From NCBI GenBank assembly GCA_964504365.1, contig CAZDDW010000004.1:14214-78213 (forward strand): 64,000 nt of DNA, read 5' to 3'. The position numbers were made by a program, and so were the translations under genes. The notes under the pieces are model-generated. The model made no database searches. It was not told the DNA's origin and was given only the letters and a program-made list of their open reading frames with translations. The DNA comes from an uncultured Gammaproteobacteria bacterium. Lineage in GTDB: Bacteria > Patescibacteriota > Patescibacteriia > UBA9934 > CAZDDW01. Positions 8,661 to 53,638 of this stretch are shown piece after piece (the first letter of the stretch is position 1; each line of letters opens with the position of its first letter).

Positions 8661-8732
8661 GGGGTAGAAAGTAGAAGGTTAATAGTAGAAAGAGTCTGAA
8701 TCTTTCTACCTTCTACTTTCTCCTTTCTACTA
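8661..8732. repeat. cluster of 8-mer GTAGAA(A/G)G repeats (3 forward, 3 inverted copies) forming a complex palindrome in the AT-rich spacer inside island 1
   Basis: ggtagaaagtagaagg...tagtagaaagag...tctttctaccttctactttctcctttctac. Confidence 0.6.
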
Positions 8733-8740
8733 AAGTAAAA

Positions 8741-8781
8741 GACGGCCACCAGATGGTGACCGCCGTTGAGCGTATACGAGT
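8741..8781 (-). terminator. intrinsic terminator after the 856-aa ORF
   Basis: minus-strand ACGGCGGTCACCAtcTGGTGGCCGT hairpin followed by CTTTTACTTT directly after stop. Confidence 0.5.
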
Positions 8782-11352
8782 CTATTCCAGACTGGCCTCG
8801 AGCCGCTCCAGATTGCTCCAGAACTGCTTGGCCTTGTCCGAACGCTCGGGCAAAGAACCCGTCTGTGTGGGGGAATCCGAGGCGACGGGGGTGTTGTCCT
8901 CGGTTTCGTTGTTGGTGGGATCGATCGTCTCGTCGACGTTCGCGTCCTTTTCCCTCTCTTCCAACCACTCTGCGTAGTCTTCCGAGGCCGTGTCGTAGGT
9001 CCAGTTGGCAGCCACGTAGATGTTGGCCAGGAGCGGGTAGAAAACCATGACGCAGACGAGGAGAATCAATGCAACTACACCAGCAACGGTTCCAGCGCCA
9101 CCTGCAACACCCTTTACCCAGGCATTGTCATCGTTGGAGAGCAGACCCCAGGCCAGACTGACCAAGGACCCCCCAAAGAAGAAACAAAGGACGATCAGGA
9201 CGATCAGACCAAGAACGAAGATGCTCCAATGGACATGAAGTCCTTTGAAGACTGCTCCGAACACGGACTTGGGCCCGTGCTCCTTGACCTTGGCTGTCAG
9301 CACCGCTGCACCAACATCATCGACCTCGAGATCCTTCGGGGTGCTCACCACCGGTGTACCGTTCCAGCGCACCTTCCACTTGCGACCCTGCTCGTCGACT
9401 GACAGCACTTTCGCGCCGCGTGGCAGACAAACCGTGCCCACACCTCGTGCGTCATCGCAGGGAACCAGGGTTCCTGCCGCCTGAGCCTTTGCTGCTGGCG
9501 ACTCACTGACCCAGACTCTGTCCTGGTAATCCGTCACCAGGAAAGCGCGCTCCTCGTCGCTCAGGCCGTACTGCGGCGTGTAGCCGAAGTTCGAAGCCGG
9601 AGTATTCGGAAGCATGGCGTAGATCGGAACCAGCGCAACCGCGCCACCGACCATGGCCACCCGAGCCATCACCGCGAAGAACCTGGCCGTTCCACGAGCC
9701 TGCTTGAAGGCGAAAATGGAACCATACCAGCTGTTCGGGTCTCGATCGACCCAACCAGAGGCAGCCACCGTGCTCGGCGCTGCGTAGAAGAAGAACAGGA
9801 AGGCGCTGGCCATTGCGACCATGCAGATGTGATCGTAGCCGAGAATCCAGTTATTGAACATCGCTGTCAGAATCAGCCCAGTCTCGACCAGGATGATCAA
9901 AGCAATGCCAATACCAGTGTTGCGAGCGTGTTTGCCTCGCTCCTGCTCCGACCCCAACTCACTGTCACCTGTCAGCTTTTCCAGCTGTACATAAGCCACC
10001 TGACCTAGCTTGGTGCTAACGTCAGCGACGTGAGCAGCCAGATCGATTCCGCCCTGGATCAAGTACCCCAAGGACCACGGAATTATGGCCATGAACAGAC
10101 CACCGAACGCGTTGGCGCCGATGGAGATCAGCGGATGAAGATCGGTTGCGAAGAGCAAGACGATCCCACTGACCCACATGGAAAAACCGATGACGAACAA
10201 GGCAATAAGGCCAAAGACCACGCTTCGACCGTCGCCTCGAGCGAACTGGACCAGCTTGTCGCCGGCACTGTCAGACGCACCTCGACTGAAATTGACCACC
10301 CGAGTCCAGATGTTCATCCGGTCGGCCACGTCTGCCACTCTTGCCGTGTTCAGCGACCCTTCAGGCTCGAGAAGACCACGGAAACTCTGGACCACCAGAC
10401 CGATGCGGTCAGGGTTGTCCACGCCGGTGTAGCGGCGCTGAATTCCGTCCTTGTCTCCATCTTTGCCAACCAAGTTCATTGTTGCCAAGTGGTCTTCGAT
10501 GGCCTTGATCACCTTTGCCGGCGCGGGCCTGTTCATGCCGTTGCGGATGAAGAAGGAGTCCTCATGACCACCATCATCACGCCACCTCAGCTCTTCTAGA
10601 ACCGCGTGCAACTTCGTGTGCGCATCTCTGGAGAGTTGCTCGAAGGCCGCCTTGACCTTCTTGCTCGGCTCAGGCAGGACACCCATGCAGTGAGGGCACG
10701 GCTGCAGGCTGAGCTGATTCATGGCCGTGTCGTAGTCGATGTAATCGACGGAGTGACCAAACTGCGGAGTATCCGGGATCTGAGGTGCGTTTCTGCCCCT
10801 CTTCGGTGCATTACGCTTCGACAGGAAGTCCATCACCTTGTTCGTGAGCAGACTCTCATCGATGTGCTCGTGCACGGCTGGGCAGGTGCAGGCAGCCTGA
10901 TCGTCTACGCGCACTGCGGTGTGTACGTAACGACCAAGATAGCCAAGCCCCTTGACCCGAGCCACCACCGGAACCAATCCAGTGAAGTCGTCAGGCAGGT
11001 CACCGATGTCCGAACCGACCAGCGCGTCGGCACCACCAGAAGAGATGGCCTCGAGCAGCCGGTTCAGCTTTTCCTCGGCCTGGATGCGCTCTTCCGCGCT
11101 AACGAACAGGTCGTCAGGCAACGGAAAGTCGATCGCGCTCCCAAGACCACGCACTCCCCAGCTAAGCCACTTCACGGCTGCCGGGTTTTTCTGCAGCTTC
11201 TCGAGCGCTTCCCCGAACATCGTGGAAGTCATTTTCTCGGAGCCGTCGCGAATTCCGTCCTCAAGGAAAGGCCAGATGGCCTGCCCAGCGAAACTAGTGA
11301 AGAATGTCACCAGCGGAGCAACCAGCCCCTTTACCATGTCGTTAGTAACCAT
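8782..11352 (-). CDS. large hypothetical polytopic membrane protein (856 aa), GC-rich island 1
   Basis: single long ORF in about 60-65% GC DNA; multiple predicted TM segments in the middle and C-terminal thirds, CxxC/CxHC pairs, acidic C-terminal tail; no recognisable family. Confidence 0.55.
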   Translation of the reverse strand: MVTNDMVKGLVAPLVTFFTSFAGQAIWPFLEDGIRDGSEKMTSTMFGEALEKLQKNPAAVKWLSWGVRGLGSAIDFPLPDDLFVSAEERIQAEEKLNRLLEAISSGGADALVGSDIGDLPDDFTGLVPVVARVKGLGYLGRYVHTAVRVDDQAACTCPAVHEHIDESLLTNKVMDFLSKRNAPKRGRNAPQIPDTPQFGHSVDYIDYDTAMNQLSLQPCPHCMGVLPEPSKKVKAAFEQLSRDAHTKLHAVLEELRWRDDGGHEDSFFIRNGMNRPAPAKVIKAIEDHLATMNLVGKDGDKDGIQRRYTGVDNPDRIGLVVQSFRGLLEPEGSLNTARVADVADRMNIWTRVVNFSRGASDSAGDKLVQFARGDGRSVVFGLIALFVIGFSMWVSGIVLLFATDLHPLISIGANAFGGLFMAIIPWSLGYLIQGGIDLAAHVADVSTKLGQVAYVQLEKLTGDSELGSEQERGKHARNTGIGIALIILVETGLILTAMFNNWILGYDHICMVAMASAFLFFFYAAPSTVAASGWVDRDPNSWYGSIFAFKQARGTARFFAVMARVAMVGGAVALVPIYAMLPNTPASNFGYTPQYGLSDEERAFLVTDYQDRVWVSESPAAKAQAAGTLVPCDDARGVGTVCLPRGAKVLSVDEQGRKWKVRWNGTPVVSTPKDLEVDDVGAAVLTAKVKEHGPKSVFGAVFKGLHVHWSIFVLGLIVLIVLCFFFGGSLVSLAWGLLSNDDNAWVKGVAGGAGTVAGVVALILLVCVMVFYPLLANIYVAANWTYDTASEDYAEWLEEREKDANVDETIDPTNNETEDNTPVASDSPTQTGSLPERSDKAKQFWSNLERLEASLE

Positions 11353-11503
11353 TTCGAACCTCCGTACGCACAGGCTTTACCTGCCGCACTTGTTTGTGTT
11401 GAATTTAACGTCCAATTTTCAGACGAGTTATATTGAAAAGATCCAGAGAAGTTTTACCTCCCCCGAATCCGAATTTGAACTAAAGTGCAGCAAAAGCTGC
11501 GGA

Positions 11504-11555
11504 TACGGAGAAGGGAGAAATATACCACTTTTGAGCCTTTTTGTCAACCTTGAGA
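11504..11555 (-). promoter_or_regulatory. sigma70-type promoter for the 856-aa ORF: TTGACA-N17-TATATT (minus strand), immediately after the upstream terminator T-tract
   Basis: minus strand reads ...cgcttattttttgtgtctcaaggTTGACAaaaaggctcaaaagtggTATATTtctc. Confidence 0.5.
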
Positions 11556-11600
11556 CACAAAAAATAAGCGAGGTATCTTAGCCTCGCTTATTCATAGTTC
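11556..11600 (-). terminator. intrinsic terminator after FAD-oxidoreductase gene
   Basis: minus-strand AAGCGAGGctaagataCCTCGCTT hairpin followed by ATTTTTTGTG. Confidence 0.55.
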
Positions 11601-11604
11601 AAGC

Positions 11605-12786
11605 TTATTTAAGCTTAGGTATCCCCCGCTTATTTTGAATTGCTTCGGTTAAAATCCTGCGGTCTTTATTCCGTCCCAAAATAGCCGCCCCAACAACCTT
11701 ATCGTTTCGAACAAAAATCTGAGTTAAAGCACCTTGTTCCACGCTTCCCCAAACAACGACCTCATCCGCGGCCCGCTTGTCCGTGTCTCCGATAAATGTA
11801 ATATCCAGTCCAAGCAAACTAATTGCATATGAAGACACTTGTTCATGCGCCGTTCGTTCACCTGCCAGTGTTTTAGCAACAGTCCGACCCTGCATCATGG
11901 CCCGACCCCAATTACCTGCACAATACTGACGGTCAACAATTGGATCAAAACTCTCAGCAATATCACCAACAGCAAATACGTCCGTAATATTGGTTTCCAA
12001 AAACTCATCTGTTTTAATTCCCTGATTGATTTCGACCCCTGAGTCTTGAACCCAAGATAGTTCTGATGAATTTCCAATTGCCACTCCAAGAATCGAACAG
12101 GGTAGATCACCCTTGGTTGTATCAACGGCTTCCAGATTTTGTTCACCACAAGTATTTGTCATTTCGGCCTCAGACAAAACTTGAACATTCTCTTTTTCAA
12201 GATGATCCTGAATTAACTTACCGGCCTGACGATTTAAAATCTTATTCCAAAAATGTTTACCACGAAAAGCAACAACAGTATCAATATTATAATTTTGAAA
12301 AACATTAATAAATTCGCAAGCAATAAACCCCCCACCATGAACAACCGCTTGGGTGCGCAACGCATCATGCTTCAGGCCGCTAATCACAGGCAGCATATGA
12401 TCAACATCGTCAATGGTCCAAAAGTAAACCACCCCTTTTGGTTCGCCAGACACTGTCCGCGGCTCAGTTCCACCAGCAATTACCAGCTTGTCGTACGGTA
12501 ACTCACGCGCGTTATCGAGTTCAATAAATTTATTTTTTGTATCCAATCGACCAGCTCTCTGTCCAAGTAATAATTCAATATTCTGATCCTGATACCATTT
12601 CTCAGATTTCAAAAAACACTTCTCCCGCTCGACCTTGCCGGTCGCGTAATGAGGAAGCAGTACCCGAGAATATAGTGGGTGATGTTCTTCAGAAATAATT
12701 GTAATATTGGCTTCGGAATCAAGCTTGTGCAGCTCTTCGGCACAGCTTGTGCCAGCAATCCCACCACCAACGATGATAACCTGCAT
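11605..12786 (-). CDS. FAD-dependent pyridine nucleotide-disulfide oxidoreductase (ferredoxin/rubredoxin-reductase or NADH-oxidase-like)
   Basis: N-terminal MQVIIVGGGIAGTSCAEE Rossmann FAD motif, second GG motif (VVHGGGFIACEF); start placed at ATG 12786 (1 nt after ferredoxin stop) rather than ORF-track 12819. Confidence 0.75.
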   Translation of the reverse strand: MQVIIVGGGIAGTSCAEELHKLDSEANITIISEEHHPLYSRVLLPHYATGKVEREKCFLKSEKWYQDQNIELLLGQRAGRLDTKNKFIELDNARELPYDKLVIAGGTEPRTVSGEPKGVVYFWTIDDVDHMLPVISGLKHDALRTQAVVHGGGFIACEFINVFQNYNIDTVVAFRGKHFWNKILNRQAGKLIQDHLEKENVQVLSEAEMTNTCGEQNLEAVDTTKGDLPCSILGVAIGNSSELSWVQDSGVEINQGIKTDEFLETNITDVFAVGDIAESFDPIVDRQYCAGNWGRAMMQGRTVAKTLAGERTAHEQVSSYAISLLGLDITFIGDTDKRAADEVVVWGSVEQGALTQIFVRNDKVVGAAILGRNKDRRILTEAIQNKRGIPKLK

Positions 12787-12787
12787 G

Positions 12788-13135
12788 TTATTTTGGATAG
12801 ATTTGATTTCCCTGGTCATCGTAAACTATCACGGCCAGAACAGGACATGACTCGGCAGCCAAGAGAACATCTGCCAATTCCGCGTCAGTCACTTCCATTT
12901 CCCTTTCGTAGATATTTTCGTTCTTCCCATGATCCAATACGTAAGCTTTATTTTCATCATTCATTTCAAAAGTCCGGGGGTCAACAATGGCACATGATCC
13001 AGCTCCGATACATAAATCTGGATCTACTTTTACTTTAATTTTAGGCATATTATTTGCTACGATAATTTTCAATGGCGTTGCGCAGGGCCTGATGTGCCAG
13101 AACTGAACAATGGACTTTGCGAGCCGGCAAACCAC
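12788..13135 (-). CDS. small [4Fe-4S]/[3Fe-4S] ferredoxin
   Basis: CIGAGSCA...ESCP cysteine motif typical of single-cluster ferredoxins; 115 aa; operon with oxidoreductase. Confidence 0.65.
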   Translation of the reverse strand: MVCRLAKSIVQFWHIRPCATPLKIIVANNMPKIKVKVDPDLCIGAGSCAIVDPRTFEMNDENKAYVLDHGKNENIYEREMEVTDAELADVLLAAESCPVLAVIVYDDQGNQIYPK

Positions 13136-13508
13136 CGAGTCGCTCCATCACATCTTGAGGTTTCAATTTTACAGCCTCATCTAGAGTCATGCCTTTATTC
13201 TCAAGAACCATGACCGAGGCCATGCTCGTTGCGGCAATGGCCGAAGCACATCCAAAGGTCTTCCACTTGAAATCCCTGATTCGACTGGTCTTGGGATCAA
13301 CCTTGATCCAAACCCTCATCACATCACCACAAGCTGATGAACCGGTCTCACCAACCGCATCAAACTCACCCGGATCTGGATCGTCTTGCATAAAATTTTT
13401 CGGATTAAAAAAATGTTCTTTCACTTCATCGGAATACATCCAGGCCTCATCTCCGGCATGGTTAATAATATCACCATCTGTCATACTATTTGAAATATTT
13501 ATCATCAA
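13050..13508 (-). CDS. iscU: Fe-S cluster assembly scaffold IscU/NifU N-terminal domain protein
   Basis: conserved ...SACGDVMRV..., FGCASAIAATSM and HCSVLAHQAL motifs (three scaffold Cys + His). Confidence 0.85.
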   Translation of the reverse strand: MMINISNSMTDGDIINHAGDEAWMYSDEVKEHFFNPKNFMQDDPDPGEFDAVGETGSSACGDVMRVWIKVDPKTSRIRDFKWKTFGCASAIAATSMASVMVLENKGMTLDEAVKLKPQDVMERLGGLPARKVHCSVLAHQALRNAIENYRSK

Positions 13509-14682
13509 CTTTCACAGGGCTGATCTTACGCAACTTCTCAACCAATGACGGGAACACCTCAAGGACATAATCAATATCTTCTTCGACGGTCGAACGACCA
13601 AGAGTGAAACGAACTGAACCATGTGCAACTTCTGACGGCAGCCCCAAGGCCATAATAACATGTGATGGATCTAAAGATGCGCTGGTGCAGGCCGATCCTG
13701 TTGAACAATAAACCCTCTGCGCATCCAGATATAAAAGCATGGCCTCGCCCTCAACATCTCCGATCGACATGTTTACATTGTTTGGCAAACGTTTTGTTGG
13801 ATGACCGTTCAGTCGTACTTTGTCGACCCGATTCTTAATACCTTCAATCAATTTATCACGCAATTTAATCAAACGCTCAGATTCTTTTTTCTTTTCAGAA
13901 TCAGCAATCTCAAGCGCCTTTGCAAAACCAACTATCCCGGCAATATTTTCTGTGCCCGGACGAACACCTGACTCCTGTCCTCCGCCATACATCAACGACT
14001 CAACTTTTAGTGTGCGGCGTTTAAATAGCATTCCAACACCTTTTGGTCCATAGATTTTTGATCCATTCAAAGTCATCATGTCAACATGAATTTTCTCAAT
14101 ATTGATTTCCAACGCCCCAGCAGCCTGACAAGCATCAGTGTGAAAAACCAAGTGTTCGGCCTCGTTATCACGGCGATGCTTCTGAATCAAGTTCCCAATC
14201 TCAGCAATTGGCTGAATAACACCGATCTCGTTATTTGCATAAATAATCGAAACAAGGATCGTATCCGGACGAATGGCAGCCATAACCTTTTTCGGATCTA
14301 CCAGACCGTCAGAATCAACATTCAAATAAGTGACCTCAAAGCCCTCTTTTTCCAACTGCTGAGCCACATGCAACACCGCGTGATGTTCGGTCTTAGTCGT
14401 GATAACATGCTTGCCTTTGTCTTGATTTTTGCGGGCATATCCAAGCAAAGCCAGGTTATCTGACTCAGTTCCCCCAGAAGTAAATATAATCTCATCAGCC
14501 CGACAACCAATTACCTTAACCACGTCGGCCCGAGCCTGATCCAGATCATCTGCCACAGCCTTACCCACGGTATGAAAACTCGAAGGATTACCATATTTCT
14601 CAGTTAAATATGGCTGCATAACCTTGAGTACCTCAGGAGCCAAAGGGGTTGTTGCCGCATGGTCTAAATAAACCTGTTTCAT
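13486..14682 (-). CDS. iscS: cysteine desulfurase (IscS/NifS family, class V aminotransferase)
   Basis: MKQVYLDHAATTPLAPEV...GNPSSFHTVG...FTSGGTESDNLA; PLP-Lys region SGSKIYGPKGVG; active-site Cys in STGSACTS. Confidence 0.9.
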   Translation of the reverse strand: MKQVYLDHAATTPLAPEVLKVMQPYLTEKYGNPSSFHTVGKAVADDLDQARADVVKVIGCRADEIIFTSGGTESDNLALLGYARKNQDKGKHVITTKTEHHAVLHVAQQLEKEGFEVTYLNVDSDGLVDPKKVMAAIRPDTILVSIIYANNEIGVIQPIAEIGNLIQKHRRDNEAEHLVFHTDACQAAGALEINIEKIHVDMMTLNGSKIYGPKGVGMLFKRRTLKVESLMYGGGQESGVRPGTENIAGIVGFAKALEIADSEKKKESERLIKLRDKLIEGIKNRVDKVRLNGHPTKRLPNNVNMSIGDVEGEAMLLYLDAQRVYCSTGSACTSASLDPSHVIMALGLPSEVAHGSVRFTLGRSTVEEDIDYVLEVFPSLVEKLRKISPVKVDDKYFK

Positions 14683-22661: not shown

Positions 22662-22928
22662 ATGTTTAAGCTTATTCCCCGGTTAGGGGTGTTAATTGCC
22701 ATTAGGATTTATCAAAGGACAATATCTTTGGATCACGGATTTCCAAAACACCTGTTCCCTAACGGATATTGTCAGTTTCATCCAACTTGCTCAGAATACG
22801 GATATCAAGCGATTGATCAACATGGAATTATCAAAGGGGGCTGGTTAACTGCTTGGCGAGTAATTAGATGCAATCCCTGGTCTCACGGAGGAATTGATCA
22901 GGTGCCAAACAAAAAAACACGCCCGTAG
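22662..22928 (+). CDS. yidD: membrane protein insertion efficiency factor YidD
   Basis: conserved CxFxPTCSxYxxxAI and NPWxxGGxD motifs (CQFHPTCSEYGYQAI...RCNPWSHGGIDQVP). Confidence 0.85.
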   Translation: MFKLIPRLGVLIAIRIYQRTISLDHGFPKHLFPNGYCQFHPTCSEYGYQAIDQHGIIKGGWLTAWRVIRCNPWSHGGIDQVPNKKTRP

Positions 22929-22938
22929 GCGCGATTTT

Positions 22939-23046
22939 TTATTTTGTGCAGGTGCATTTGCACTCTTTGCAGTCTGAGCACTGAGTACAGTCACACTCAC
23001 CGTCTTTGCACTCAGGACAAACATCCTTACCTTCACAACATCCCAT
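22939..23046 (-). CDS. putative 35-aa cysteine-rich (metallothionein-like) peptide, unannotated small ORF
   Basis: ATG 18 nt downstream of yggU stop, same strand; translation MGCCEGKDVCPECKDGECDCTQCSDCKECKCTCTK (11 Cys/35 aa); followed by hairpin + T-tract shared with yidD. Confidence 0.4.
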   Translation of the reverse strand: MGCCEGKDVCPECKDGECDCTQCSDCKECKCTCTK

Positions 23047-23063
23047 AGAACAATTTTCAATTG

Positions 23064-23327
23064 TTAATTATCAATTTTTAAAATATCACGGACTTGGTCT
23101 TCGGGCAGGTCAATTTTTATTTGTTTGACTCGGCCGGTTAGGCCCCTGTTAATTTGAATCAACGTTTTGGCCACTCCAAGCTTTTTGGACAGAAAGTCGA
23201 TTATGGTTTTGTTGGCCCTTCCTTCTGTTGCTGGTGCAGCAATTCTCATTTTTAGATTAGTTTTATCAATCCACTTAACAATTTTATTCTGTTTGGCATT
23301 CGGTTGTACATGAACAGTTATTGTCAT
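23064..23327 (-). CDS. DUF167/YggU-family protein
   Basis: 87 aa; ...KIVKWIDKTNLKMRIAAPATEGRANKTIIDFLSKKLGV... matches UPF0235 (YggU) pattern. Confidence 0.7.
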   Translation of the reverse strand: MTITVHVQPNAKQNKIVKWIDKTNLKMRIAAPATEGRANKTIIDFLSKKLGVAKTLIQINRGLTGRVKQIKIDLPEDQVRDILKIDN

Positions 23328-24160
23328 ACACGGAGGCCTTTTAATGCCTTCAGGTCCTTGGTAATTTTCCCGGCGGCATGCGGGGTTTCCAGGATCATGT
23401 CAATGTTCTTTAATTTTGGATGTTTGACAATGGCCTTGAATCCTTTTCTACCAATTTTTCCTTTACCAATATTTTCGTGACGATCCTTGTGAGAACCAAG
23501 ATCAGACATTGAATCGTTGGCATGGATTACTACCAAGTGTTTGAGACCAACTATTTTAGCAAACTCTTTTAAAGTTTTATCAACCGAAGCTTTGTCACGC
23601 AGATCATATCCAGACGCAAAGGAGTGCTGGGTGTCCAGACAAACTCCAATTTCCTTGCCTCGCTTTGCGCCCTTAATAAAAGTTGCAATCTCTTCGAATG
23701 TATCGCCCATAACCATACCAGCGCCAGCAGAGTTTTCAATTAGGAGCTGAGTAGATCCAGAGTAGCCATTCATAATTTTGTTTAGACCCTCAATAACAAA
23801 AGCCTCGGCCTGCTCTTGGTTAACATCGCGAGCGCTGCCGATATGAAACATTAGGGCCTTGGCTCCAAGCAAACTGGCTCGTTCCAAGTCCTCACGAACC
23901 ACTCGGGCTGTAGAAGAACGAATCGATTTTTTTGAAGAGGCCAGATTTAAATAATATGGCGCGTGTACATAAACACGAGCCATATTATTTTTTTTCTTTT
24001 CTTGTTTAAATTTAGCCAAGATTTCATCAGTCAGCTTTGATGCCGGTCCGCCCTGTGGTGAACGAGTGAAGATTTGGAAAACCTCGCAACCAATCTCAGC
24101 CGCGTTAGCTGGGGCATTGAACACCCCACCAGCAATTGATACGTGAGCTCCAAATAACAT
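23324..24160 (-). CDS. nfo: endonuclease IV (AP endonuclease family 2)
   Basis: MLFGAHVSIAGG...; His/Asp/Glu metal-ligand pattern of the xylose-isomerase-like TIM barrel (HAPYYLNLAS, VIHANDS). Confidence 0.9.
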   Translation of the reverse strand: MLFGAHVSIAGGVFNAPANAAEIGCEVFQIFTRSPQGGPASKLTDEILAKFKQEKKKNNMARVYVHAPYYLNLASSKKSIRSSTARVVREDLERASLLGAKALMFHIGSARDVNQEQAEAFVIEGLNKIMNGYSGSTQLLIENSAGAGMVMGDTFEEIATFIKGAKRGKEIGVCLDTQHSFASGYDLRDKASVDKTLKEFAKIVGLKHLVVIHANDSMSDLGSHKDRHENIGKGKIGRKGFKAIVKHPKLKNIDMILETPHAAGKITKDLKALKGLRV

Positions 24161-24164
24161 GACT

Positions 24165-25454
24165 TTATTTTACCATGGTCTGTCGTAGAAGGTCGATTAC
24201 CTTTCGGTTTTTAAGCATTACCTCGATATATTCTCGGTTTGCAGGAGAGTAAATATTTTTCTTGGCCTCCTCGTCTTCGTACTGTGAGGCCATCTTGTCT
24301 AATTCAGCATCTACCTCATCTGAGCTAGCGGCAACTCCTTCATCTTTGGCAATAGCCCGTATGACCAAAGCTACTTTAATTCGCAGAAGTGCTTCAGGAG
24401 TGAAATCTAGACGCAGATCACCAAGTGTTTTATTAATTGATTTTAGATAATCGTCAAACACCCCACCTTGATTCTCGACAGTGTGTTCTAGTTCGTGAAC
24501 CATTTTATGAACCTCTTCGTCAACTAATGAATCAGAGATTTCTTCAAATGTTGTTTTACTAGCAATTGTGTCCAGCATGCTGCGTTCCTGTCGTACACGC
24601 TCCTTCTGTTCACCTTCCTTTTCCATGTTGGCCTTTAGCATGTCCTTCATGGTTGCCAAATCCTTCATTCCCAAAGACTTGGCAAAGTCATCATCCATGG
24701 TTGGGCTTTCTAGGCGGTAGATTTCTTGAAGGGTAATTTCAAACTCTACGTCCTGTCCAGCTAAATGTTTTTGATAATGTGTTTCTGGAAATTTTAAAGT
24801 GAAAGTTTTTTTGTCTCCTTCTTTAAGTCCAATAATCTCATCACAGAATCCAGGGATGTAATGGTCCTCACAAAGGAAAATGGCATTTCCCTGTGCCTGG
24901 CCACCTTCTACTGGTACCCCTTCTTTTTTCATGTTCATATCAATCATGGCCTTGTCTTCTTTGGTGGCAACATGGCCTTTTTCCTCACGGATTTCCTTGG
25001 TCTGCATTTTACCTAGTCCTTCCAAAGCCTGATCTAAATCTTTATCAGCCACCTCAACTTTTTTGGATTCAACAGTCAGTGTTTTCCAATCAGCAAGCTT
25101 TGTGATTTTTGGCATCAAGGCCACCTCAACTGTATATTCTAGATCATTATCCGGAGCCATTTTTTCAACTTTGATTGCTGGCTCACCTGCGGTTTCCAAC
25201 TTTTCATTAGTCACTGCCTCGATATAACTTTTGCGAACAATTCCGTCCAAGGCTGCTTCGTAAATTTTCATTTCGCCAACACGATTCTTAACAACATCAT
25301 AAGGGGCCTTTCCGGCACGAAATCCCTCGATTGAGCTTTGTTCAGATAGTTCTTGGGCGGCTCGTTCAAGCTCAGGTCGCATTTCTTCAACCGGAACAGT
25401 GATGGTTAGTTTAACCGTGTTTTTAGGTAAATTTTCAAGTTTTACTTCAGACAT
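24165..25454 (-). CDS. tig: trigger factor
   Basis: N-terminal ribosome-binding region with GFRAGKAPY (GFRxGxxP signature); central PPIase-like and C-terminal domains; 429 aa. Confidence 0.9.
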   Translation of the reverse strand: MSEVKLENLPKNTVKLTITVPVEEMRPELERAAQELSEQSSIEGFRAGKAPYDVVKNRVGEMKIYEAALDGIVRKSYIEAVTNEKLETAGEPAIKVEKMAPDNDLEYTVEVALMPKITKLADWKTLTVESKKVEVADKDLDQALEGLGKMQTKEIREEKGHVATKEDKAMIDMNMKKEGVPVEGGQAQGNAIFLCEDHYIPGFCDEIIGLKEGDKKTFTLKFPETHYQKHLAGQDVEFEITLQEIYRLESPTMDDDFAKSLGMKDLATMKDMLKANMEKEGEQKERVRQERSMLDTIASKTTFEEISDSLVDEEVHKMVHELEHTVENQGGVFDDYLKSINKTLGDLRLDFTPEALLRIKVALVIRAIAKDEGVAASSDEVDAELDKMASQYEDEEAKKNIYSPANREYIEVMLKNRKVIDLLRQTMVK

Positions 25455-25512
25455 AATAGGTTTAAAAAATTAGGTTATGGGCCGAGTTTAATGTAATTTT
25501 AGCAAGATGTCA
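25455..25512 (-). promoter_or_regulatory. promoter for tig: TTGACA-N17-TAAACT fused to upstream terminator T-tract
   Basis: minus strand ...tctttttaTTGACAtcttgctaaaattacatTAAACTcggcc...ATG. Confidence 0.5.
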
Positions 25513-25519
25513 ATAAAAA

Positions 25520-25559: not shown

Positions 25560-26732
25560 TCAGGGCACGAGAGAAGTGGCCTGCAAAGGCGGTTCTTCCG
25601 GCGTGGCCTGGTTGTCTTCCGGTTTGCTTTCGGGGTCGCCGGGGTAGGTCGCTTCCTCAGGGGCTGGTCGAGAAGAGACCTCGACCTTCCAGAGGTAGTC
25701 ATCCAGTCGCAGAGACAGTGTCCCTGGATTCACAGATGCTGGGTCAGCACGAGTGACCCACTGGAACTTCTTGCCCAAGCTAAGGACTCGCTCCATGTTT
25801 TCTCGGCTGTGATCACGTCCGATCATGCCTGAGAAACGCGGCTGTCGAGACAGCAGGACTAGCAACGTGTCGATTCCGAGGGGTCGGGCCAGCGGGTGTC
25901 CGTCTCGTGTCCAGAAGGCAGGCCAGACCGCAGCCGCGGCCACGAAGAAGTTGACGATGATCTCCACCTGCTCTTCGATCGAGTACCCATGCAAGGAGCT
26001 GGTCTTGCCAACCGCTTGCTTGATGTACTGGAACAAAGACATCAGGTTGTGCCTGTCTCTGGGAAGGCGTCCACGAGTTGCCTGGTCGAAGAAGATCTTG
26101 TTGAGCAGAGGGGAACGCGGGTCCCGGTTCAGCTCAAGAGCGGCCAGGTAGGCTGCTTTCTCAGCGCGATTCTTGAAGCGGTCCACACGGTGAGCCTGAG
26201 CCAGACGAAGTCGTGGGTCAAGCTTCTTGCGCTTGCCCTGCTGGCCGAAGATGGCGATCCGTTGCTTTACCGGCAGGTTCACTGTGGTGGTCACTGGAAA
26301 GGACCAACGACCACGCTGTTCACCATCGAGCATCTCACAGGCAGCCAGTCGATGCTGGCCGTCGTCCACGAGCATGCAGCAGGCGTCCATCAGTTTTTCC
26401 GGATCGTCCTCAACCATGCCGGTCAGGGTGTGGCGCACCTCGTCGTATTCCCAACTGTGAACATCGTCGCCAGAACGCACATCTCCAAGGATGGAATCGA
26501 GCATGACCCCGCCCTCTTCCTTTTCCATGTGCAAGGCAATGCCGATGGCGTGATTGTTGGTCAGAGCCCTGTTCACACCTTCCGGGTGTTCGCCAAAGCG
26601 CAGGACAACAGCGATCTTCATCAAGAGCTCAGCTGAGAGCACGAAGGTGTAAAGGACGGTCTCCTTCTGCATGAACCGAGTAACGTTTGGAATTTCCACT
26701 TTTTGAAGGGCCATGTTTCCTCCCAACAGCAC
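25560..26732 (-). CDS. DGQHR-motif (DndB-like) protein, GC-rich island 2
   Basis: motif LVDDGQHRLAA (the DGQHR signature of DndB/DpdB-like ParB-fold proteins); about 58% GC DNA; 390 aa with acidic/Pro-rich C-terminal tail. Confidence 0.7.
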   Translation of the reverse strand: MLLGGNMALQKVEIPNVTRFMQKETVLYTFVLSAELLMKIAVVLRFGEHPEGVNRALTNNHAIGIALHMEKEEGGVMLDSILGDVRSGDDVHSWEYDEVRHTLTGMVEDDPEKLMDACCMLVDDGQHRLAACEMLDGEQRGRWSFPVTTTVNLPVKQRIAIFGQQGKRKKLDPRLRLAQAHRVDRFKNRAEKAAYLAALELNRDPRSPLLNKIFFDQATRGRLPRDRHNLMSLFQYIKQAVGKTSSLHGYSIEEQVEIIVNFFVAAAAVWPAFWTRDGHPLARPLGIDTLLVLLSRQPRFSGMIGRDHSRENMERVLSLGKKFQWVTRADPASVNPGTLSLRLDDYLWKVEVSSRPAPEEATYPGDPESKPEDNQATPEEPPLQATSLVP

Positions 26733-26790
26733 CGGGCATCACCAGCGTGCCCACACTGAAGAGAATTAACTTAACAGAATAAGCTTATCC

Positions 26791-26830
26791 TGTCAAGTAA
26801 CTGTATAAAAAAAGACCCGAGATTCGGGTC
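26791..26830 (-). terminator. terminator hairpin GACCCGA/TCGGGTC + T7, followed by TTGACA-N17-TAAGTT promoter for the DGQHR gene
   Basis: minus strand ccacttGACCCGAatcTCGGGTCtttttttatacagttacTTGACAggataagcttattctgtTAAGTT. Confidence 0.55.
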
Positions 26831-27203
26831 AAGTGGAATTATCCTGTTGATCAAGGAACTGACGAAGACTGGCTTCATCAGAATGGTCTTGACGTAGCCG
26901 GTCAAGGAAGGAGCCCAGAGTATCGCCTTGCTTGGCGGTCTGTTGGTAAACTTCCAGTATACGAGGCAGGTGACGCTGCAAATCTCCAAGCGGCAGAAGC
27001 TTCTTGGGCTCTGGTTTGCCAACATCCAAAGCTCTTCGCACTTTGGCTGCGAGCCGCTTTTTTATCTCAGGCAGGCGGTCAAGGATTTCCAAAGTACTTT
27101 TGTCGTCCTTGTCCAGGAATTGGCAAAAGGTTCCAGGCTTTCCCGCATCTACCCAGTCTTCGAAAGATTGTTCGATGCGGGGTATGATCAGGTCAGCTAA
27201 CAA
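26829..27203 (-). CDS. hypothetical protein (124 aa), island 2
   Basis: GC-rich ORF, 11 nt downstream of previous ORF stop; no recognisable domain. Confidence 0.4.
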   Translation of the reverse strand: MLADLIIPRIEQSFEDWVDAGKPGTFCQFLDKDDKSTLEILDRLPEIKKRLAAKVRRALDVGKPEPKKLLPLGDLQRHLPRILEVYQQTAKQGDTLGSFLDRLRQDHSDEASLRQFLDQQDNST

Positions 27204-27213
27204 ATTCCACCTC

Positions 27214-27822
27214 TCAGGAGTCCAGCCAGGCCCTGAGCTCGGCTTCGGTTGGGTGGTCTGTGGCTATACGACTGAGGTAATTGTCGAAGCTTTCGTCAGG
27301 AGTTGCCTCTTCGGTGAACCTTGTTGTGATTTGTCCCAGATACTGCTGAAGCACACTGCTTGGAAGTTGTTCTGCTGCTGCCGGCTTTTCCGCAGGCATA
27401 CCACTTGAAGCAACGGTTCCAGGGCTGAGAATACCATCGACCTGCAGCTCCAGGCCGCTACTGTCGGTTTCTTTGATTCGGCCGGTAAGACCATGCTCAT
27501 CGAAACCAAGCACCGTTGACACCCGACCTGCTCCACGTATCTCCTGGTCATCGAACTTGATCCCCTTGATCAAGACACAGCCGCCACTGACCCCTTGGTC
27601 AAGTGCAACAACCAAGAACAGGAACGAGTTTCGCGAACGAGCTACGTACACCTCACCAGGTCGCATTTCCAGCACTGGTTTGTAGATACCAGTGTCGTTA
27701 TCGCTTCGGCGATAAGGAACGGTCTGGGTAATGGTCACCATTCGCCCGTCAGGCAAGGAAAGGGTCAGTCCACGCAAGGTTGTTACCAACTCTTGTACGT
27801 CTTGGGTAAAGATCGAGGTCAT
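27214..27822 (-). CDS. hypothetical protein (202 aa), island 2
   Basis: GC-rich ORF with own TTGACA-N17-TATGGT promoter downstream of helicase terminator; no recognisable domain. Confidence 0.45.
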   Translation of the reverse strand: MTSIFTQDVQELVTTLRGLTLSLPDGRMVTITQTVPYRRSDNDTGIYKPVLEMRPGEVYVARSRNSFLFLVVALDQGVSGGCVLIKGIKFDDQEIRGAGRVSTVLGFDEHGLTGRIKETDSSGLELQVDGILSPGTVASSGMPAEKPAAAEQLPSSVLQQYLGQITTRFTEEATPDESFDNYLSRIATDHPTEAELRAWLDS

Positions 27823-27925
27823 GACTTCATCTCCTTTATGAAGGTAATTACCATATCAGACAACAAAGAGGCTGTCAAACCATATCGTTTGTGTTTACTT
27901 ATTAAAAAAGAGGCACTCAAGTGCC

Positions 27926-30900
27926 TCAAGTTGTTAGAGCAATTGCCCCACGGCTGGCCAGCTTTTGCAAAGTGCGCCAATCATGAGCAAAAAGGTCTAG
28001 TGCAGCCTGGTCTGGCGTCAAAGGTCCTGTGTCCGGACGAGCACCCCATCGTTGGAATTCTCTAAGGATGGTCCTTTTAACTGCCTCGTTATCCAAGACA
28101 GTGCCAGATCGACTGGCTAGCGGGTTGACCACTTCGAAGTCGTTATAGACAACTGTGCTTTGGTTACCAGGCTCAGGTCCTTTTCCTTTGCCGTTACGAA
28201 CGTTGATGTTTCGGGCAAGCTCAAAGGTAAAACGGAAAGCCTCATGGTCTGTAAACCGCGGCTTGTTTCCGTTTAGCGAGAACAGAATGGACCAGAAAGC
28301 AAACTTGGGCTTTGTTTTGTGGCCCTCTCCCTTTGGTACGATCAGACCAGAAAGAGGTAGTACATCACAACCCTCGCTGCGTAAGGCACTTACCCAACAC
28401 TCATAAAGCGTTTCATCAAGAGCCTGTCGGTTAAAGGTCAACCAGATCAAGCCGTATGATTCAGTAACGCGGACGAGTTCACGTAGAATCCGAATGCGCT
28501 CTGGCTCTTGTTGGTCTGCTTCCAGATTGGTCCAATCAATAGCCAAAGAACTTACAGTCAATCGGAACCTGTCTGTCCAATCACTGGGTAGCTGAGAAAG
28601 GCGTCCAACCTCAGCATTAGTGCCTTGGTGTGGGGAAAGGGTTCTGCCAAGATCAACGATCGTTGGGTTGATGTCAATCCCGTAGATCGGTTGGTCAAGG
28701 TAGCGTTCCATGGTCAATGGGCCACAGCCAGCATCAAAGATCAGTTCTGGGCGATCCAGGATCCCTGCTGGGATCAATCCACTGGTTAGCGACCGGGTCA
28801 TGAAACGGGCTATGTGCCCGGAAGCTCCAAAGTCCTGAACTTGGACAAAGCTTCTGGCAAATATCTCCGCATTGGTCCGTATGCCAAACTCGGTTGACAG
28901 TCGACGAATGACGCCGTCCTCACCAGCACCGCGCATGTCAGAGGCGATGAGGTTGACATGGTCGGTTGGAGAGCGGGTTAGGCGCTTTAGTCGAGTACTG
29001 TTGGGAGTAGTGTATTCGTTCCACTCCTCTTCAGTCGGTGGAACACGAGCCCTGAAACGAACCAAGTGTTCCCACTTGCGCTTGACCAGCTCATAGCGAC
29101 TCTCATCAGCAGTATCAACAATGTTGTCGTCTCCGACAAGCACTAGTGACAAGTACTCCACAGGCACAGTCAGACCTTCTCTCCAGAAACGACCAAGGAA
29201 CTGTTTCCAAGGCAACCATCCCTGGGCATAGGCGATCACCTTTACCCCTTGGACAGTTGGGTCGTTTCTGACCAGGACAGACAGGTTGATGCTGTCCGGA
29301 CAGGTCTTCATAGAAACCAGCAGGATCCTGGCACGTGGGTCAGTTCGCCAGCGAGCGATCAAAGAATCTCTCGCGTGACTACCAACGCCAACACTGCCAT
29401 CGAGCAACAAAACAGCTTCGTCGCCGTACCACTCCTTCAAGAGCTTGCCAACCCACACCCCGTCATCATCACCTTTGTAGGGCTGGGTTACCCCCTGGAC
29501 ATAAACGCCGGTAGCAACCACCACCTTATGGTTGTGGAGGCATTCGTCTAGCTGTCTTTTTAGCCAGACAAGCTTGGTTGACAGTCGCCAGTCGCTGAAA
29601 CGCTCAGCCATCTCGTCAGGCCAGTCGTAGGCAGTGTTTCCAGTCAGCACGTGCGGCATGTCCGCTGCATGAAGCAGGTGACGCACCTTGGCACTGGCAT
29701 CGATTCCAATTCCGTTACCATTTCCATTCTCTTGCTCAAGGTCAGGTTCGTGATCCTGAACAAAGCGGTACAACTCAGCATGATCCGGATTCATTTCAAG
29801 TGGCACTGGCCCGAACAGGTCCTCCCACGGCTGTGGGTTGATTGTTGGCAGGTCGCGCACCTCTTGAAGTTCTATGTCCAGGATACAGGTCCCGAAGATG
29901 GCTCGGAGCAAGCGGGGGCTGGCAAACACACCAGAACTGACAAACCGTTCTGGGTCTGGGAACAGGTCTGGTCTCAAGATCGTGGCCAAAGCAGCGCACT
30001 CAACAGGAGAATTCTCCCAAGGAGTTACTGAAAGGGCCAAAACCTTTTTCAGACGTGCCTCAGCACCCTTAATGATCGTCAGACAAGCAAGGGCTCGTTG
30101 TGCCGCGCTTTTTCCAAGGACATTTTTTCCGTATTGACACTCATCCCAAATCACACCATCGAAAGCCAGTTTGCTAAGAGCACTGACAATTTCAGGCCTG
30201 GTAAGGTTTGAATAGCCAACAACGATAAATCTGGCATTCCTTGGAATAAAGGCAACATCACGAATGCCTCGAATTACATGTACCACACCAGGCCGCCTAG
30301 CCCAGGGGAAGTAAATCTTTAGCTCGTTTTCCCAGTTGTCTCGAGCGCCAGGCGCACAAAAGACCAGGGTCTGTTGACAGCCAGCCTGAAGAACGTCAAG
30401 GGCCGCGTAACTGGTTTTGTACGTACCAGTATCTCCAATGTTGAGAACTCGCGACTCGTCTTTGGAACGAGCCAGCCACCAGCGCACATGAAGAGCTGGG
30501 AACATCCGGCTGTTGATCGTTTCGATCGTGTCCGGATAGGTCGTGGTCAAAAGGGCTTCGATGCGTTCGTGAGCGATTTGCCACACCTTACGTTCGTAGT
30601 CGTTGTTTGCTGCGGCCCGCTCTTCTCTTACGAAGTCATGGCCCAAATCAACGTCACGACTGAACCAGTAAAGCAACTCGCGTATACGACAATCAACATC
30701 CAGATCCAGAACCTCGGTTGGAATTCCTTTGATGATTTCCGGGTCGATCACTACCTTGGCGCCTGAATCGGTGCGGTTGGTGTTGAGTGGTCGTACCGTA
30801 ACCACACCCAGATTGGCCCGAAGTTTCATGTCTGCTTGGAGCTTGAGCACCAGGCGCGTCATCCATTCCACGTCTCCGTAGAAGAATTCAGGACAAACAC

Positions 30901-31147
30901 GGACAATCGCGTGAGCCAGGGCTTCGGGGAATGCTTCGAACCGTTCCCAGATAAAACGAAGTAAATCGTTTTTGTTGATTTGCTCAGCAAACAACGACGA
31001 CTTGTTTTCTACAACCTCAGCCAAACACTGATCAAGGTCCTTATCAGTCAGGTCACCACGTTGGTGGAGGAAGCGCAGGAATTCGTACTTCTTCTCGTTC
31101 TCTGGCATTTTGGCTAGCAGCGATACTATTTGTTGATGACTAAGCAT
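27926..31147 (-). CDS. SNF2-family helicase/ATPase fused to C-terminal class-I SAM-dependent methyltransferase domain, island 2
   Basis: helicase motifs IGDTGTYKT (I), VIWDECQYGKN (II), ALSVTPWEN (III), LLVSMKTCPDSINL and QGWLPWKQFLGRFWREG (V/VI); MTase motif I LIFDAGCGPL and IYGIDINP; start set at ATG 31147 (GGAGAGG SD) since the ORF-track GTG at 31240 lies inside the terminator/-35 element. Confidence 0.7.
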   Translation of the reverse strand: MLSHQQIVSLLAKMPENEKKYEFLRFLHQRGDLTDKDLDQCLAEVVENKSSLFAEQINKNDLLRFIWERFEAFPEALAHAIVRVCPEFFYGDVEWMTRLVLKLQADMKLRANLGVVTVRPLNTNRTDSGAKVVIDPEIIKGIPTEVLDLDVDCRIRELLYWFSRDVDLGHDFVREERAAANNDYERKVWQIAHERIEALLTTTYPDTIETINSRMFPALHVRWWLARSKDESRVLNIGDTGTYKTSYAALDVLQAGCQQTLVFCAPGARDNWENELKIYFPWARRPGVVHVIRGIRDVAFIPRNARFIVVGYSNLTRPEIVSALSKLAFDGVIWDECQYGKNVLGKSAAQRALACLTIIKGAEARLKKVLALSVTPWENSPVECAALATILRPDLFPDPERFVSSGVFASPRLLRAIFGTCILDIELQEVRDLPTINPQPWEDLFGPVPLEMNPDHAELYRFVQDHEPDLEQENGNGNGIGIDASAKVRHLLHAADMPHVLTGNTAYDWPDEMAERFSDWRLSTKLVWLKRQLDECLHNHKVVVATGVYVQGVTQPYKGDDDGVWVGKLLKEWYGDEAVLLLDGSVGVGSHARDSLIARWRTDPRARILLVSMKTCPDSINLSVLVRNDPTVQGVKVIAYAQGWLPWKQFLGRFWREGLTVPVEYLSLVLVGDDNIVDTADESRYELVKRKWEHLVRFRARVPPTEEEWNEYTTPNSTRLKRLTRSPTDHVNLIASDMRGAGEDGVIRRLSTEFGIRTNAEIFARSFVQVQDFGASGHIARFMTRSLTSGLIPAGILDRPELIFDAGCGPLTMERYLDQPIYGIDINPTIVDLGRTLSPHQGTNAEVGRLSQLPSDWTDRFRLTVSSLAIDWTNLEADQQEPERIRILRELVRVTESYGLIWLTFNRQALDETLYECWVSALRSEGCDVLPLSGLIVPKGEGHKTKPKFAFWSILFSLNGNKPRFTDHEAFRFTFELARNINVRNGKGKGPEPGNQSTVVYNDFEVVNPLASRSGTVLDNEAVKRTILREFQRWGARPDTGPLTPDQAALDLFAHDWRTLQKLASRGAIALTT

Positions 31148-31224
31148 CAAACCTCTCCGTTCCTTGTATTGCACAAGAAAATATTGAAAAGACCAAGGGA
31201 CCTTTTTAACAGATATAAGCCAAA

Positions 31225-31258
31225 TTGTCAATAAAAACACCCATCCAAGTGGATGGGT
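31225..31258 (-). terminator. intrinsic terminator after sigma-factor gene (ACCCATCC/GGATGGGT + GTTTTTATTGACAA)
   Basis: minus strand ctctaaACCCATCCacttGGATGGGTgtttttattgacaa. Confidence 0.65.
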
Positions 31259-32527
31259 TTAGAGTTCTGTTTCTTGGTTGACAATGGTGTGCAGGTCGCT
31301 GAACCACTGGCCTGGTGGCGCAACCTGATCATCGAGCTCGATTATTGCTTGGCCTCCACCATTGCAATAACTGAATCGGCAGAATTGAGCAGCTCCTGTC
31401 ACCAGTATGGTTTTTTCTTCTTTGTCTATCTTATCAGAGAACAGTAGTCCACAAGCAACTAGTTTCTGATAAAAAGCTTGACCCAGTTGATCCCTGATAC
31501 CAGATACACCATATTCGGCATCGGCTACATGCAATAGTGTTGCGGCTTGAGCGAGGCTGACAGAAATCTCCCAGAACACGGGTGCAGACCCGTTATTTTC
31601 TAGAGGCCGCCTGTCAACGTCTTGTATATCATCCAACTCATCTAGGCTGTTGGCACCTAAGTCAACCAACGCCTGTTTCATTTTATCTTTGGCTCTGATT
31701 TCGAGCTGTCTTATTCTTTCGCGACTGATACCTAGAGATTTTCCAAGTACTCGTAGCGACACTTTTTGCTCTAGGTAGCGGTGCTCAATAATGAAGCGTT
31801 CTCTTTCACTCAAGACGCCCAAAGCCAGTTCGGCTAATGCACGTTGATGCTCATTTTCCCGTGTAGAATCAACAGAATCTTCAGGTGAAGGGGTGTCTTC
31901 ATCTTCCAGCAGATCGATGAACATTACCTCAGAGTCATCCGAGGCTTTGTTGTGCAACGAAAGATCCTGGCCACTTAGACGCATGTCCATTTCGCGCACT
32001 ACTTTTTCATCTACACCGAGCTCGACGGCTATCAAAGACAGGCGCTCGTCTCCTGTTAGATCCAGATTTTTGTACTCTACCTTAGCCCGGGCTCGTCCGA
32101 GCCCACTGAAAACCTTTCTCTGTTTTTGGGTGGTTCCCATGCGGACTTGAGATCGGCTTCTGAGAATGAATTCCTTTATTTCGGCCTTCATCCAGTACTT
32201 GGCGTAGCCCAAGAACCTGACACCGCGGTCTGGATCAAAGCGCGTAATGGCTCGACATATACCAATCAAGGCCTGTTGAAGCAGTTCTTCCGCAGGAACA
32301 TGCCTGTTTGCATAACGCTTTGATAATTTAACAGCGTATTTGATATTTGCATCAACCAGGGCTGAGACAGCCTCTTTGTCTCCTGATTTGGCCAGGGCAA
32401 CCAGATCAAGTTCTTCATTTCGTTTAAGAATACGTACGGTTGGATTGCTAAGGTGCTTTGTTATGATCGGGGACAGGTCTGGTCTTTTGACATAACCCAA
32501 TCTATTCTCCCTTTCAGGTCGGAGCAT
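31259..32527 (-). CDS. sigma-70 family RNA polymerase sigma factor, RpoH (sigma-32)-like, with about 130-aa C-terminal extension of unknown function
   Basis: region 2 FLGYAKYWMKAEIKEFILRSR; RpoH-box-like MGTTQKQRKVFSGLGRA; region 4.2 HTH LGISRERIRQLEIRAKDKM; GC-rich. Confidence 0.75.
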   Translation of the reverse strand: MLRPERENRLGYVKRPDLSPIITKHLSNPTVRILKRNEELDLVALAKSGDKEAVSALVDANIKYAVKLSKRYANRHVPAEELLQQALIGICRAITRFDPDRGVRFLGYAKYWMKAEIKEFILRSRSQVRMGTTQKQRKVFSGLGRARAKVEYKNLDLTGDERLSLIAVELGVDEKVVREMDMRLSGQDLSLHNKASDDSEVMFIDLLEDEDTPSPEDSVDSTRENEHQRALAELALGVLSERERFIIEHRYLEQKVSLRVLGKSLGISRERIRQLEIRAKDKMKQALVDLGANSLDELDDIQDVDRRPLENNGSAPVFWEISVSLAQAATLLHVADAEYGVSGIRDQLGQAFYQKLVACGLLFSDKIDKEEKTILVTGAAQFCRFSYCNGGGQAIIELDDQVAPPGQWFSDLHTIVNQETEL

Positions 32528-52066: not shown

Positions 52067-52068
52067 AG

Positions 52069-53603: not shown

Positions 53604-53638
53604 TTGGGTGGCAAAGATACCACTTTTTAGCCTAATTG

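Follow-up and report, generated by a model that had tools for sequence, protein, structure and literature searches.

This report concerns a short open reading frame (ORF) in a 64,000-nucleotide (nt) stretch of contig CAZDDW010000004.1 (assembly GCA_964504365.1, positions 14,214 to 78,213), the whole of which is called the window below. The contig is deposited under an uncultured Gammaproteobacteria bacterium and is placed by GTDB in the Patescibacteriota. The mini-ORF, rich in cysteine (Cys) codons, lies on the minus strand behind the genes tig, nfo and yggU and faces the convergent gene yidD. Comparison with related loci points to a gene of a new family, probably one of metal-binding peptides.

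The mini-ORF and its transcription unit

The preliminary description of the window had given coordinates and a translation for this ORF, and both were reproduced exactly (Table 1). On the minus strand the ATG occupies positions 23046-23044 and the TAA stop 22941-22939. An in-frame stop lies seven codons upstream with no other start codon on the way, so that this ATG is the first possible start. It had been placed 18 nt past the yggU stop, and it does begin at the 18th nt, behind a leader whose predicted fold (-2.2 kcal/mol) is no better than that of shuffled sequences. A start of this kind, A/T-rich, unstructured and lacking a Shine-Dalgarno sequence, is usual for genes of this genome. The leaders of dnaA (start 21970), dnaN (20344), tig (25454) and nfo (24160) are likewise A/T-rich and lack a Shine-Dalgarno sequence. 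Such a sequence was seen in only 16 of 56 long ORFs, a rough count from a list that includes overlapping, probably spurious ORFs.

Table 1. Features of the mini-ORF locus in the window
Feature	Position	Strand	Remarks
Mini-ORF	22939..23046	-	35 amino acids (aa), 11 Cys, then TAA stop; MGCCEGKDVCPECKDGECDCTQCSDCKECKCTCTK
Cys module 1	22987..23019	-	residues 10-20, CPECKDGECDC; C-x2-C-x4-C-x-C; family core in alignment A2
Cys module 2	22948..22980	-	residues 23-33, CSDCKECKCTC; second C-x2-C-x4-C-x-C; alignments A1 and A2
Spacer, yggU stop to mini-ORF ATG	23047..23063	-	17 nt, A/T-rich, unstructured, no Shine-Dalgarno sequence
yggU (DUF167)	23064..23327	-	directly upstream of the mini-ORF; Pfam PF02594, E = 6.6e-23; stop codon 23066-23064
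nfo (endonuclease IV)	23324..24160	-	Pfam AP_endonuc_2, E = 1.8e-47; stop overlaps yggU start
tig (trigger factor)	24165..25454	-	first gene of the unit; Pfam Trigger_N, FKBP_C, Trigger_C
Promoter-like TTGACA-17-TAAACT	25485..25513	-	upstream of tig; consensus match only
Intrinsic terminator	22907..22933	-	hairpin 22933-22918, then T7; overlaps yidD stop codon
yidD	22662..22928	+	convergent; Pfam YidD, E = 1.1e-25; stop codon 22926-22928 inside the terminator hairpin

Cys residues make up 31% of the mini-ORF. Every stop-free run of 35 codons in the 64 kb that holds at least nine Cys falls inside it, and 100 first-order Markov simulations of the window gave a top count of 9 Cys per stop-free 35 codons, with a mean of 6.8. 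The Cys density of the mini-ORF is thus above chance expectation.

The mini-ORF is the last cistron of the tig-nfo-yggU unit, with the terminator directly behind it. The hairpin starts 5 nt past the mini-ORF stop and folds at -18.7 kcal/mol (z = -4.5) in the minus-strand transcript, and the plus-strand version is far weaker (-8.5 kcal/mol, z = -1.3). The preliminary description had called the ORF the last gene of this unit, ending just before a hairpin and T-tract shared with yidD. Its position here bears out both statements, and every mini-ORF found in a relative likewise falls between the yggU stop and the terminator.

The order tig-nfo-(variable gene)-yggU, converging on yidD-rnpA-rpmH beside dnaA, is conserved in the clade. 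Nfo is a tri-zinc enzyme, and its homologues are labelled deoxyribonuclease IV in the source records. The interval between nfo and yggU is variable (1282-1686 in locus L050, 3348-4538 in L175, about 3340-4100 in L176-L179). Its inserts in relatives are a NUDIX hydrolase and/or a protein of about 250 aa, neither of which occurs in the window. The NUDIX gene is inserted in the operon of L050 and L175; the ~250-aa protein has a weak DUF7847 match in L175 and L179 and no Pfam match in L176-L178.

Relatives and the coding signature of the Cys frame

The gap between yggU and yidD was read in every obtainable syntenic locus. The best named relatives by Nfo are Candidatus Uhrbacteria and "Patescibacteria group" metagenome-assembled genomes; Nfo identity does not exceed 63% in the species-level genome collection and reaches 72-88% among metagenome proteins. 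Ten metagenome contigs of the window's own strain hold an identical ORF and carry no comparative information. Relatives with a mini-ORF in the same slot range from 61 to 88% identity in Nfo (Table 2). The Cys-rich ORF between yggU and the terminator is intact in L040, L050, L174, L175, L176, L179, L013 and L033, and a hairpin with a T-run stands behind the mini-ORF in all relatives that carry one. In P0002, the closest relative (YggU 82%, Nfo 88%), the gap of 151 nt is compatible with the ORF. The L180 locus ends before yggU and falls outside the comparison.

Table 2. The mini-ORF of the window and its counterparts in the same operon slot
Form	Locus	Nfo identity	Peptide and remarks
Two-module	window	100%	MGCCEGKDVCPECKDGECDCTQCSDCKECKCTCTK
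Two-module	L040	88%	MGCCDDSNKESCSECKNSDCQCDSCPDCKEDPCTCK
Two-module	L050	80%	MGCCGSEDKCSECKDSECRCDDKCPECKTSPCKCK
Two-module	L174	79%	MDCGCKKEDCPTCKECQDKDCSCEEKCSESDPKSCKCK
Two-module	L175	77%	MGCCGEGVCPECKADPCTCDKKACCPECKDGGECKCE
Two-module	L179	72%	MGCCDNSEKCPKCGNETCTCEKCAECGCDKCKCE
Two-module	L177	76%	..CSKKDTCPNCKQEKCVCEEKCSGCGEECTCD; no canonical in-frame start
One-module	L176	75%	MGCSKKCAKCGKKPCRCK
One-module	L178	73%	gene of L176 with a frameshift in an A6/A7 run; read from a TTG, it would keep the full Cys4 module as MFKKCAKCGKKPCRCK
One-module	L013	63%	MNEVCPVCKKDPCQCP; Shine-Dalgarno AAGGGGAG in front
One-module	L033	61%	MNETCPTCGNDPCTC; ATG overlaps the yggU TGA as ATGA

The peptides fall into two forms. 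Seven two-module forms, with the window and L177 counted, have 31-38 aa and 9-11 Cys; four one-module forms, one of them frameshifted (L178), have 15-18 aa. The module is C-x2-C-x4-C-x-C, and its four Cys in module 1 (C10, C13, C18 and C20 of the window peptide) are invariant in 10 of 10 members of alignment A2. The residue that follows the first Cys is usually Pro, and the one behind the second tends to be K or G. The 15-18-aa peptides of L013, L033 and L176 are built from a single such module. The long forms consist of an N-terminal MGCC and two modules, and both the CC and module 2 are conserved among them. The counterpart of module 2 reads CPDCKEDPCTC in L040 and CPECKTSPCKC in L050, and the 11th Cys of the window peptide is a D-to-C change in the spacer of this module. 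A six-frame scan of 344 kb of related loci for C-x2-C-x(3-5)-C-x-C near a stop returned this slot and one low-complexity match; the filter missed the slot's own mini-ORF in L033.

Substitutions among the relatives follow the Cys frame. Across the window, L040 and L050 the 10 shared Cys are invariant at an overall identity of 56%, and TGT and TGC interchange in 9 of the 10 Cys columns. Codon position 3 is identical at 38-53% of sites, versus 65-79% at positions 1 and 2. Over the 21 pairs formed by the seven long forms, the ratio of nonsynonymous to synonymous differences per site (pN/pS) is 0.23-0.67 in the Cys frame (mean 0.42), with pS at 0.54-1.26, mostly near or past saturation. Four of the five other frames give about 0.8-2.7; the fifth, an antisense frame with the same wobble position, gives 0.32-0.84. 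Conservation of the reading frame in relatives had been named beforehand as a check; the frame, the Cys positions and the operon slot are all kept, and the substitution pattern is that of coding sequence. On this comparative evidence we take the mini-ORF to be a real, conserved and never-annotated gene.

A TTG-started ORF of 71 aa in another frame (22845-23060, minus strand) was considered and rejected as spurious. Its pN/pS is about 1, and it spans the terminator and the antisense of yidD. An ORF track or gene caller would display it instead of the mini-ORF, and the gene calls of L175 do include a similar spurious gene (4919-5233) while lacking both yidD and the mini-ORF.

The opposite view, that there is no gene here, would make the mini-ORF either a chance frame in a spacer rich in TGY (TGT or TGC) triplets or a by-product of conservation for the terminator. 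It could appeal to the gene callers, none of which predicted the mini-ORF in any contig, and to the lack of any relative in the protein databases searched. Both variants are already contradicted by the comparative data, and we regard them as hardly credible. Nine diverged lineages carry the ORF intact, and a tenth (L177) lacks only a canonical start; its substitutions are frame-specific, with each Cys retained despite saturated synonymous change; and its Cys density exceeds that of all 100 simulations. Nor would termination need the spacer, because relatives that lack the ORF manage with a yggU-yidD gap of only 0-36 nt.

If the frame is translated, its Cys codons rather than its product could still be what matters. 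Ribosomes stalling for scarce Cys-tRNA would then alter the terminator, the stability of the mRNA or read-through antisense to yidD-rnpA-rpmH, and the peptide itself would be functionless. The precedent for this idea is the mycobacterial polycysteine short ORFs (bioRxiv 10.1101/834739). Eleven Cys codons in 35 would suit such a sensor, as would a stop 5 nt before the hairpin, where a terminating ribosome would cover the 5' arm, and the poor conservation of the non-Cys residues. A Leu_leader-like match in Rfam over the ORF end and terminator (22911-22968, minus strand; weak at 22 bits and E = 0.054, under the gathering score of 50) points the same way, although the hairpin and U-tract alone are its most likely source. 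We nevertheless think regulation of this kind improbable. The mini-ORF is the last cistron and not the first, and on its strand only the antisense of a convergent gene lies downstream. Counting codons requires neither an invariant Cys spacing nor the preferences for Pro and for K or G; the one-module relatives hold only 4-5 Cys codons; and no alternative antiterminator structure is evident.

Predicted function and wider surroundings

Across the family Cys content is 25-32%. Overall, Cys accounts for 29% of residues, K for 16%, E for 11% and D for 9.5% (K, E and D together 36%), and H, F, W, Y, L and I do not occur among the 295 residues of 10 members. Net charge varies between members, from -5 to +7, and is not conserved. 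Since charge swings so widely, it is the thiol pattern, not a binding surface, that selection appears to keep. With no L, I, F, Y, W or H there is no hydrophobic core, and the peptide could therefore fold only around metal ions held by thiolates.

We conclude that the mini-ORF is probably a genuine translated gene of a new modular, Cys-rich and metallothionein-like family of metal-binding peptides in Uhrbacteria-like Patescibacteria, and that these peptides most probably bind metal ions. Metallothioneins are recognised operationally by low mass, a Cys content of about 15-33%, the absence of His and aromatic residues, and CC, CxC and CxxC arrangements, all of which are found here. The term metallothionein-like, used in the preliminary description, is apt in each of these respects. 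The likeness is one of kind; the family is, as far as its sequences tell, not homologous to any described metallothionein family.

The modules suggest how metal would be held. In the 15-18-aa forms one metal ion would be bound by the four thiolates of the single 11-residue module. RPB3 offers a compact precedent in its stretch CTCEEFCPEC, whose four Cys bind a single Zn, the match itself being weak and non-significant. The window peptide, with two modules and the N-terminal CC, has 10-11 thiolates, which could bind two ions separately or, in the manner of a single metallothionein domain, one cluster of 3-4 divalent ions (M(II)) or of Cu(I); in such domains 9 Cys hold three M(II) and 11 Cys hold four. 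For the long forms a thiolate cluster and separate ions are equally possible. The role would likely be metal buffering or delivery. Zn(II) would be the preferred metal, since the mini-ORF is co-transcribed with the tri-zinc enzyme Nfo. A secondary possibility would be that the thiols protect against metal or oxidative stress, because the NUDIX hydrolase in the operon of several relatives gives it a flavour of damage control.

A more far-reaching proposal must be considered doubtful. It holds that these Patescibacteria-specific peptides of 15-38 aa, with one or two Cys4 modules, would be among the smallest metal-binding peptides encoded and would serve Nfo as a dedicated zinc store or chaperone. 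They would then be the first metallothionein-type system of the candidate phyla radiation (CPR), and the step from one to two modules, with its gain of Cys, would be captured in living lineages.

Several results weigh against a metal-binding family. Pfam-A searches (hmmscan, E up to 10) matched no family with the window peptide or with any of the seven members of at least 20 aa, and NCBIfam profiles gave no match, including none to a precursor model for ribosomally synthesised and post-translationally modified peptides (RiPPs). Neither the sequence nor the family profile found anything significant in the PDB (best E = 0.25-1); the non-significant matches were to scorpion toxins, C2H2 knuckles (CPECGK) and the RPB3 stretch (E = 0.25-2). 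BLASTP against human MT2A gave E = 8 after composition correction. A single-sequence AlphaFold2 model was of low confidence (predicted local distance difference test 65, predicted template modelling score 0.25). In L177 (4374-4478) nine in-frame Cys are present and no ATG, GTG or TTG follows the upstream stop. Compared with L176, L178 (4363-4413; OZ246408.1, a 1.0-Mb genome) has its frame broken in an A6/A7 homopolymer; since yidD too is uncalled there, assembly indels are likely. Six syntenic relatives (L046, L012, L015, L017, L019 and L030) are those with the short gap and have no mini-ORF, which makes it dispensable. Finally, the proposed link to Nfo and zinc is drawn from co-transcription only.

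Broader searches found no relative. None was matched by phmmer among 1.84 billion protein representatives (E up to 0.001), and a word-index search of 5.8 billion proteins with an in-frame padded 42-aa query gave no candidate. The mini-ORF is uncalled by gene callers on all contigs examined, and protein databases cannot hold ORFs that gene callers do not predict. The pattern MGCC-x(3-9)-C-x2-C-x4-C-x-C, run against metagenome DNA, brought up no family member among the matches listed (at least 120), which were dominated by poly-Cys frames of TGY microsatellites. In the literature we found no account of such peptides in Patescibacteria.

Metal could also be bound for a purely structural purpose. 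The peptides would then be tiny zinc-knuckle micro-proteins with a specific partner (YggU, Nfo or the ribosome) and one structural Zn per module, in the manner of the C(P)XCG zinc-finger micro-proteins of haloarchaea (PMC11241148, PMC10716476). The CPxC[K/G] knuckle of most members suits this reading, as do the weak, non-significant PDB profile matches to CPECGK knuckles and to RPB3, and the strict linkage of the mini-ORF to yggU. That linkage is offset by the several relatives that have yggU and have lost the mini-ORF. The variable charge and the scarcely conserved non-Cys residues leave no conserved surface for a partner, and module number varies from one to two while extra Cys (the CC and the 11th Cys) accumulate, as in thiolate-cluster peptides. 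We therefore judge a dedicated partner unlikely.

Another possibility, raised in the preliminary description, is a ribosomally synthesised precursor, for example of a thioether peptide of the SCIFF/ranthipeptide type. The ORF is short and Cys-rich, and precursors of the SCIFF type are also Cys-rich, at about 45 aa. The same description had noted that no maturase gene is adjacent, and the large ORFs scanned between about 8.8 and 34.6 kb of the window include none. These encode a penicillin-binding protein, DnaN, DnaA, a sigma factor, a proton-pumping pyrophosphatase (H+-PPase), a DndB-like protein, an aminotransferase and an oxidoreductase; several smaller ORFs were left out of the scan, and four of the scanned ORFs have no Pfam family. 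By Pfam, no radical S-adenosylmethionine (radical-SAM), YcaO or lanthionine-synthetase gene occurs among the large ORFs within about 14 kb on one side and 11.5 kb on the other, and no maturase gene is called in the flanks of the relatives' loci. Cys residues begin at position 3, so that leader and core cannot be divided, the mini-ORF has a fixed place at a housekeeping locus of reduced genomes, and the NCBIfam search was negative. A RiPP precursor is accordingly disfavoured and seems to us very improbable.

Elsewhere in the window, a block at 25560-31240, between a sigma-70 gene (31259-32527, minus strand) and tig, has a GC content of about 52%, against 41-46% around it. It holds four ORFs, two of them small; a DndB-like/DGQHR ORF (25560-26732) scores 25 bits for Pfam DndB, below the cut-off, and a 1104-aa ORF (27926-31240) has no Pfam match. 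In L046, L175, L177 and L179 the sigma-70 gene lies directly upstream of tig, so that the block looks like an inserted island, possibly one related to defence. Patches at 8001-12000, 40001-42000 and 52001-54000 are also GC-rich (54-58%, versus about 43-46% for the genome) and may be additional foreign DNA; one contains an 856-aa ORF (8782-11352) with no Pfam match. An FAD oxidoreductase with a rubredoxin-reductase C-terminal domain (11605-12819, minus strand) and a class-V, cysteine-desulfurase-like aminotransferase (13486-14682, minus strand) lie about 8-11 kb from the Cys peptide.

Comparison with known Cys-rich systems

As a kind of molecule, Cys-rich metal-binding peptides are to be expected; what would be new here is the modular, lineage-specific family. 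The genomes of Patescibacteria are minimal, and their metal and redox homeostasis is poorly understood. A metallothionein-like peptide conserved in one of their core housekeeping operons would offer a starting point for learning how these bacteria buffer zinc, copper or cadmium. Should the link to Nfo be true, an enzyme would be co-transcribed with its own metal donor. A family unseen by gene callers and absent from billion-entry databases is also a concrete case of missed small-protein biology. The series from 15-aa one-module to about 35-aa two-module peptides would offer small, synthesisable models for Cys4 sites and for the evolution of thiolate clusters by module duplication.

Like the precursors of SCIFF/ranthipeptides, the mini-ORF products are short, Cys-rich and ribosomally made. 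Those precursors are adjoined by a radical-SAM maturase, unlike the mini-ORF, beside which none was found among the large ORFs scanned.

The polycysteine short ORFs of mycobacteria are leaderless, Cys-responsive attenuators and the first ORF of their transcript, and it is their runs of Cys codons that matter, not the peptide (bioRxiv 10.1101/834739). The mini-ORF resembles them in being unannotated, dense in Cys codons and part of an operon transcript. It differs in lying not at the 5' end but as the 3'-terminal cistron before a terminator, and in its conserved Cys spacing.

The zinc-finger micro-proteins of Haloferax volcanii are defined by a pair of C(P)XCG motifs, which together make up a single zinc site (PMC11241148). 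They are under 70 aa, often unannotated, and expected to bind Zn through four Cys (PMC11241148, PMC10716476, PMC6562870). The present family shares with them the CPxC[G/K] knuckle, the size of a micro-protein and the fate of being missed by annotation. There is no second C(P)XCG, however, and the family falls outside the definition of that class; its second pair is a CxC four residues on, which makes the site far more compact, and its peptides are much shorter and richer in Cys.

Among bacterial metallothioneins, SmtA and BmtA (about 55 aa) use His and Cys ligands in a zinc-finger-like fold and contain aromatic residues, and MymT is a Cu(I) protein of 53 aa. The metal handled is Zn for SmtA and Cu for MymT (PMC7387436). 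The mini-ORF peptides are, like SmtA/BmtA (Metallothio_Pro) and MymT, small, bacterial and Cys-rich, and those proteins sequester metal. At 15-38 aa the present peptides are shorter, they lack His and aromatic residues and match no profile, and no metal-sensing regulator adjoins the mini-ORF.

The closest likeness in size and composition is to the Cu-metallothionein of Neurospora crassa, of 26 aa, and to the beta domain of mammalian MT-1/2, of 30 aa with 9 Cys. The family differs from both in being bacterial, embedded in an operon and only a candidate metal binder. Homology to metallothioneins is absent by the MT2A comparison and by the lack of a matching Pfam metallothionein model, and the family has its own invariant C-x2-C-x4-C-x-C module. 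The peptides nevertheless share with these metallothioneins a very small size, a Cys content of about 30% in CC, CxC and CxxC arrangements, and a composition rich in K, S, T, D and E, without aromatics or His. The window peptide even contains a heptapeptide, CKECKCT, identical to one in human MT2A. The growth of the peptides by repeated Cys units is likewise that of metallothioneins, and the 10-11 Cys reached in this way correspond to one metallothionein domain.

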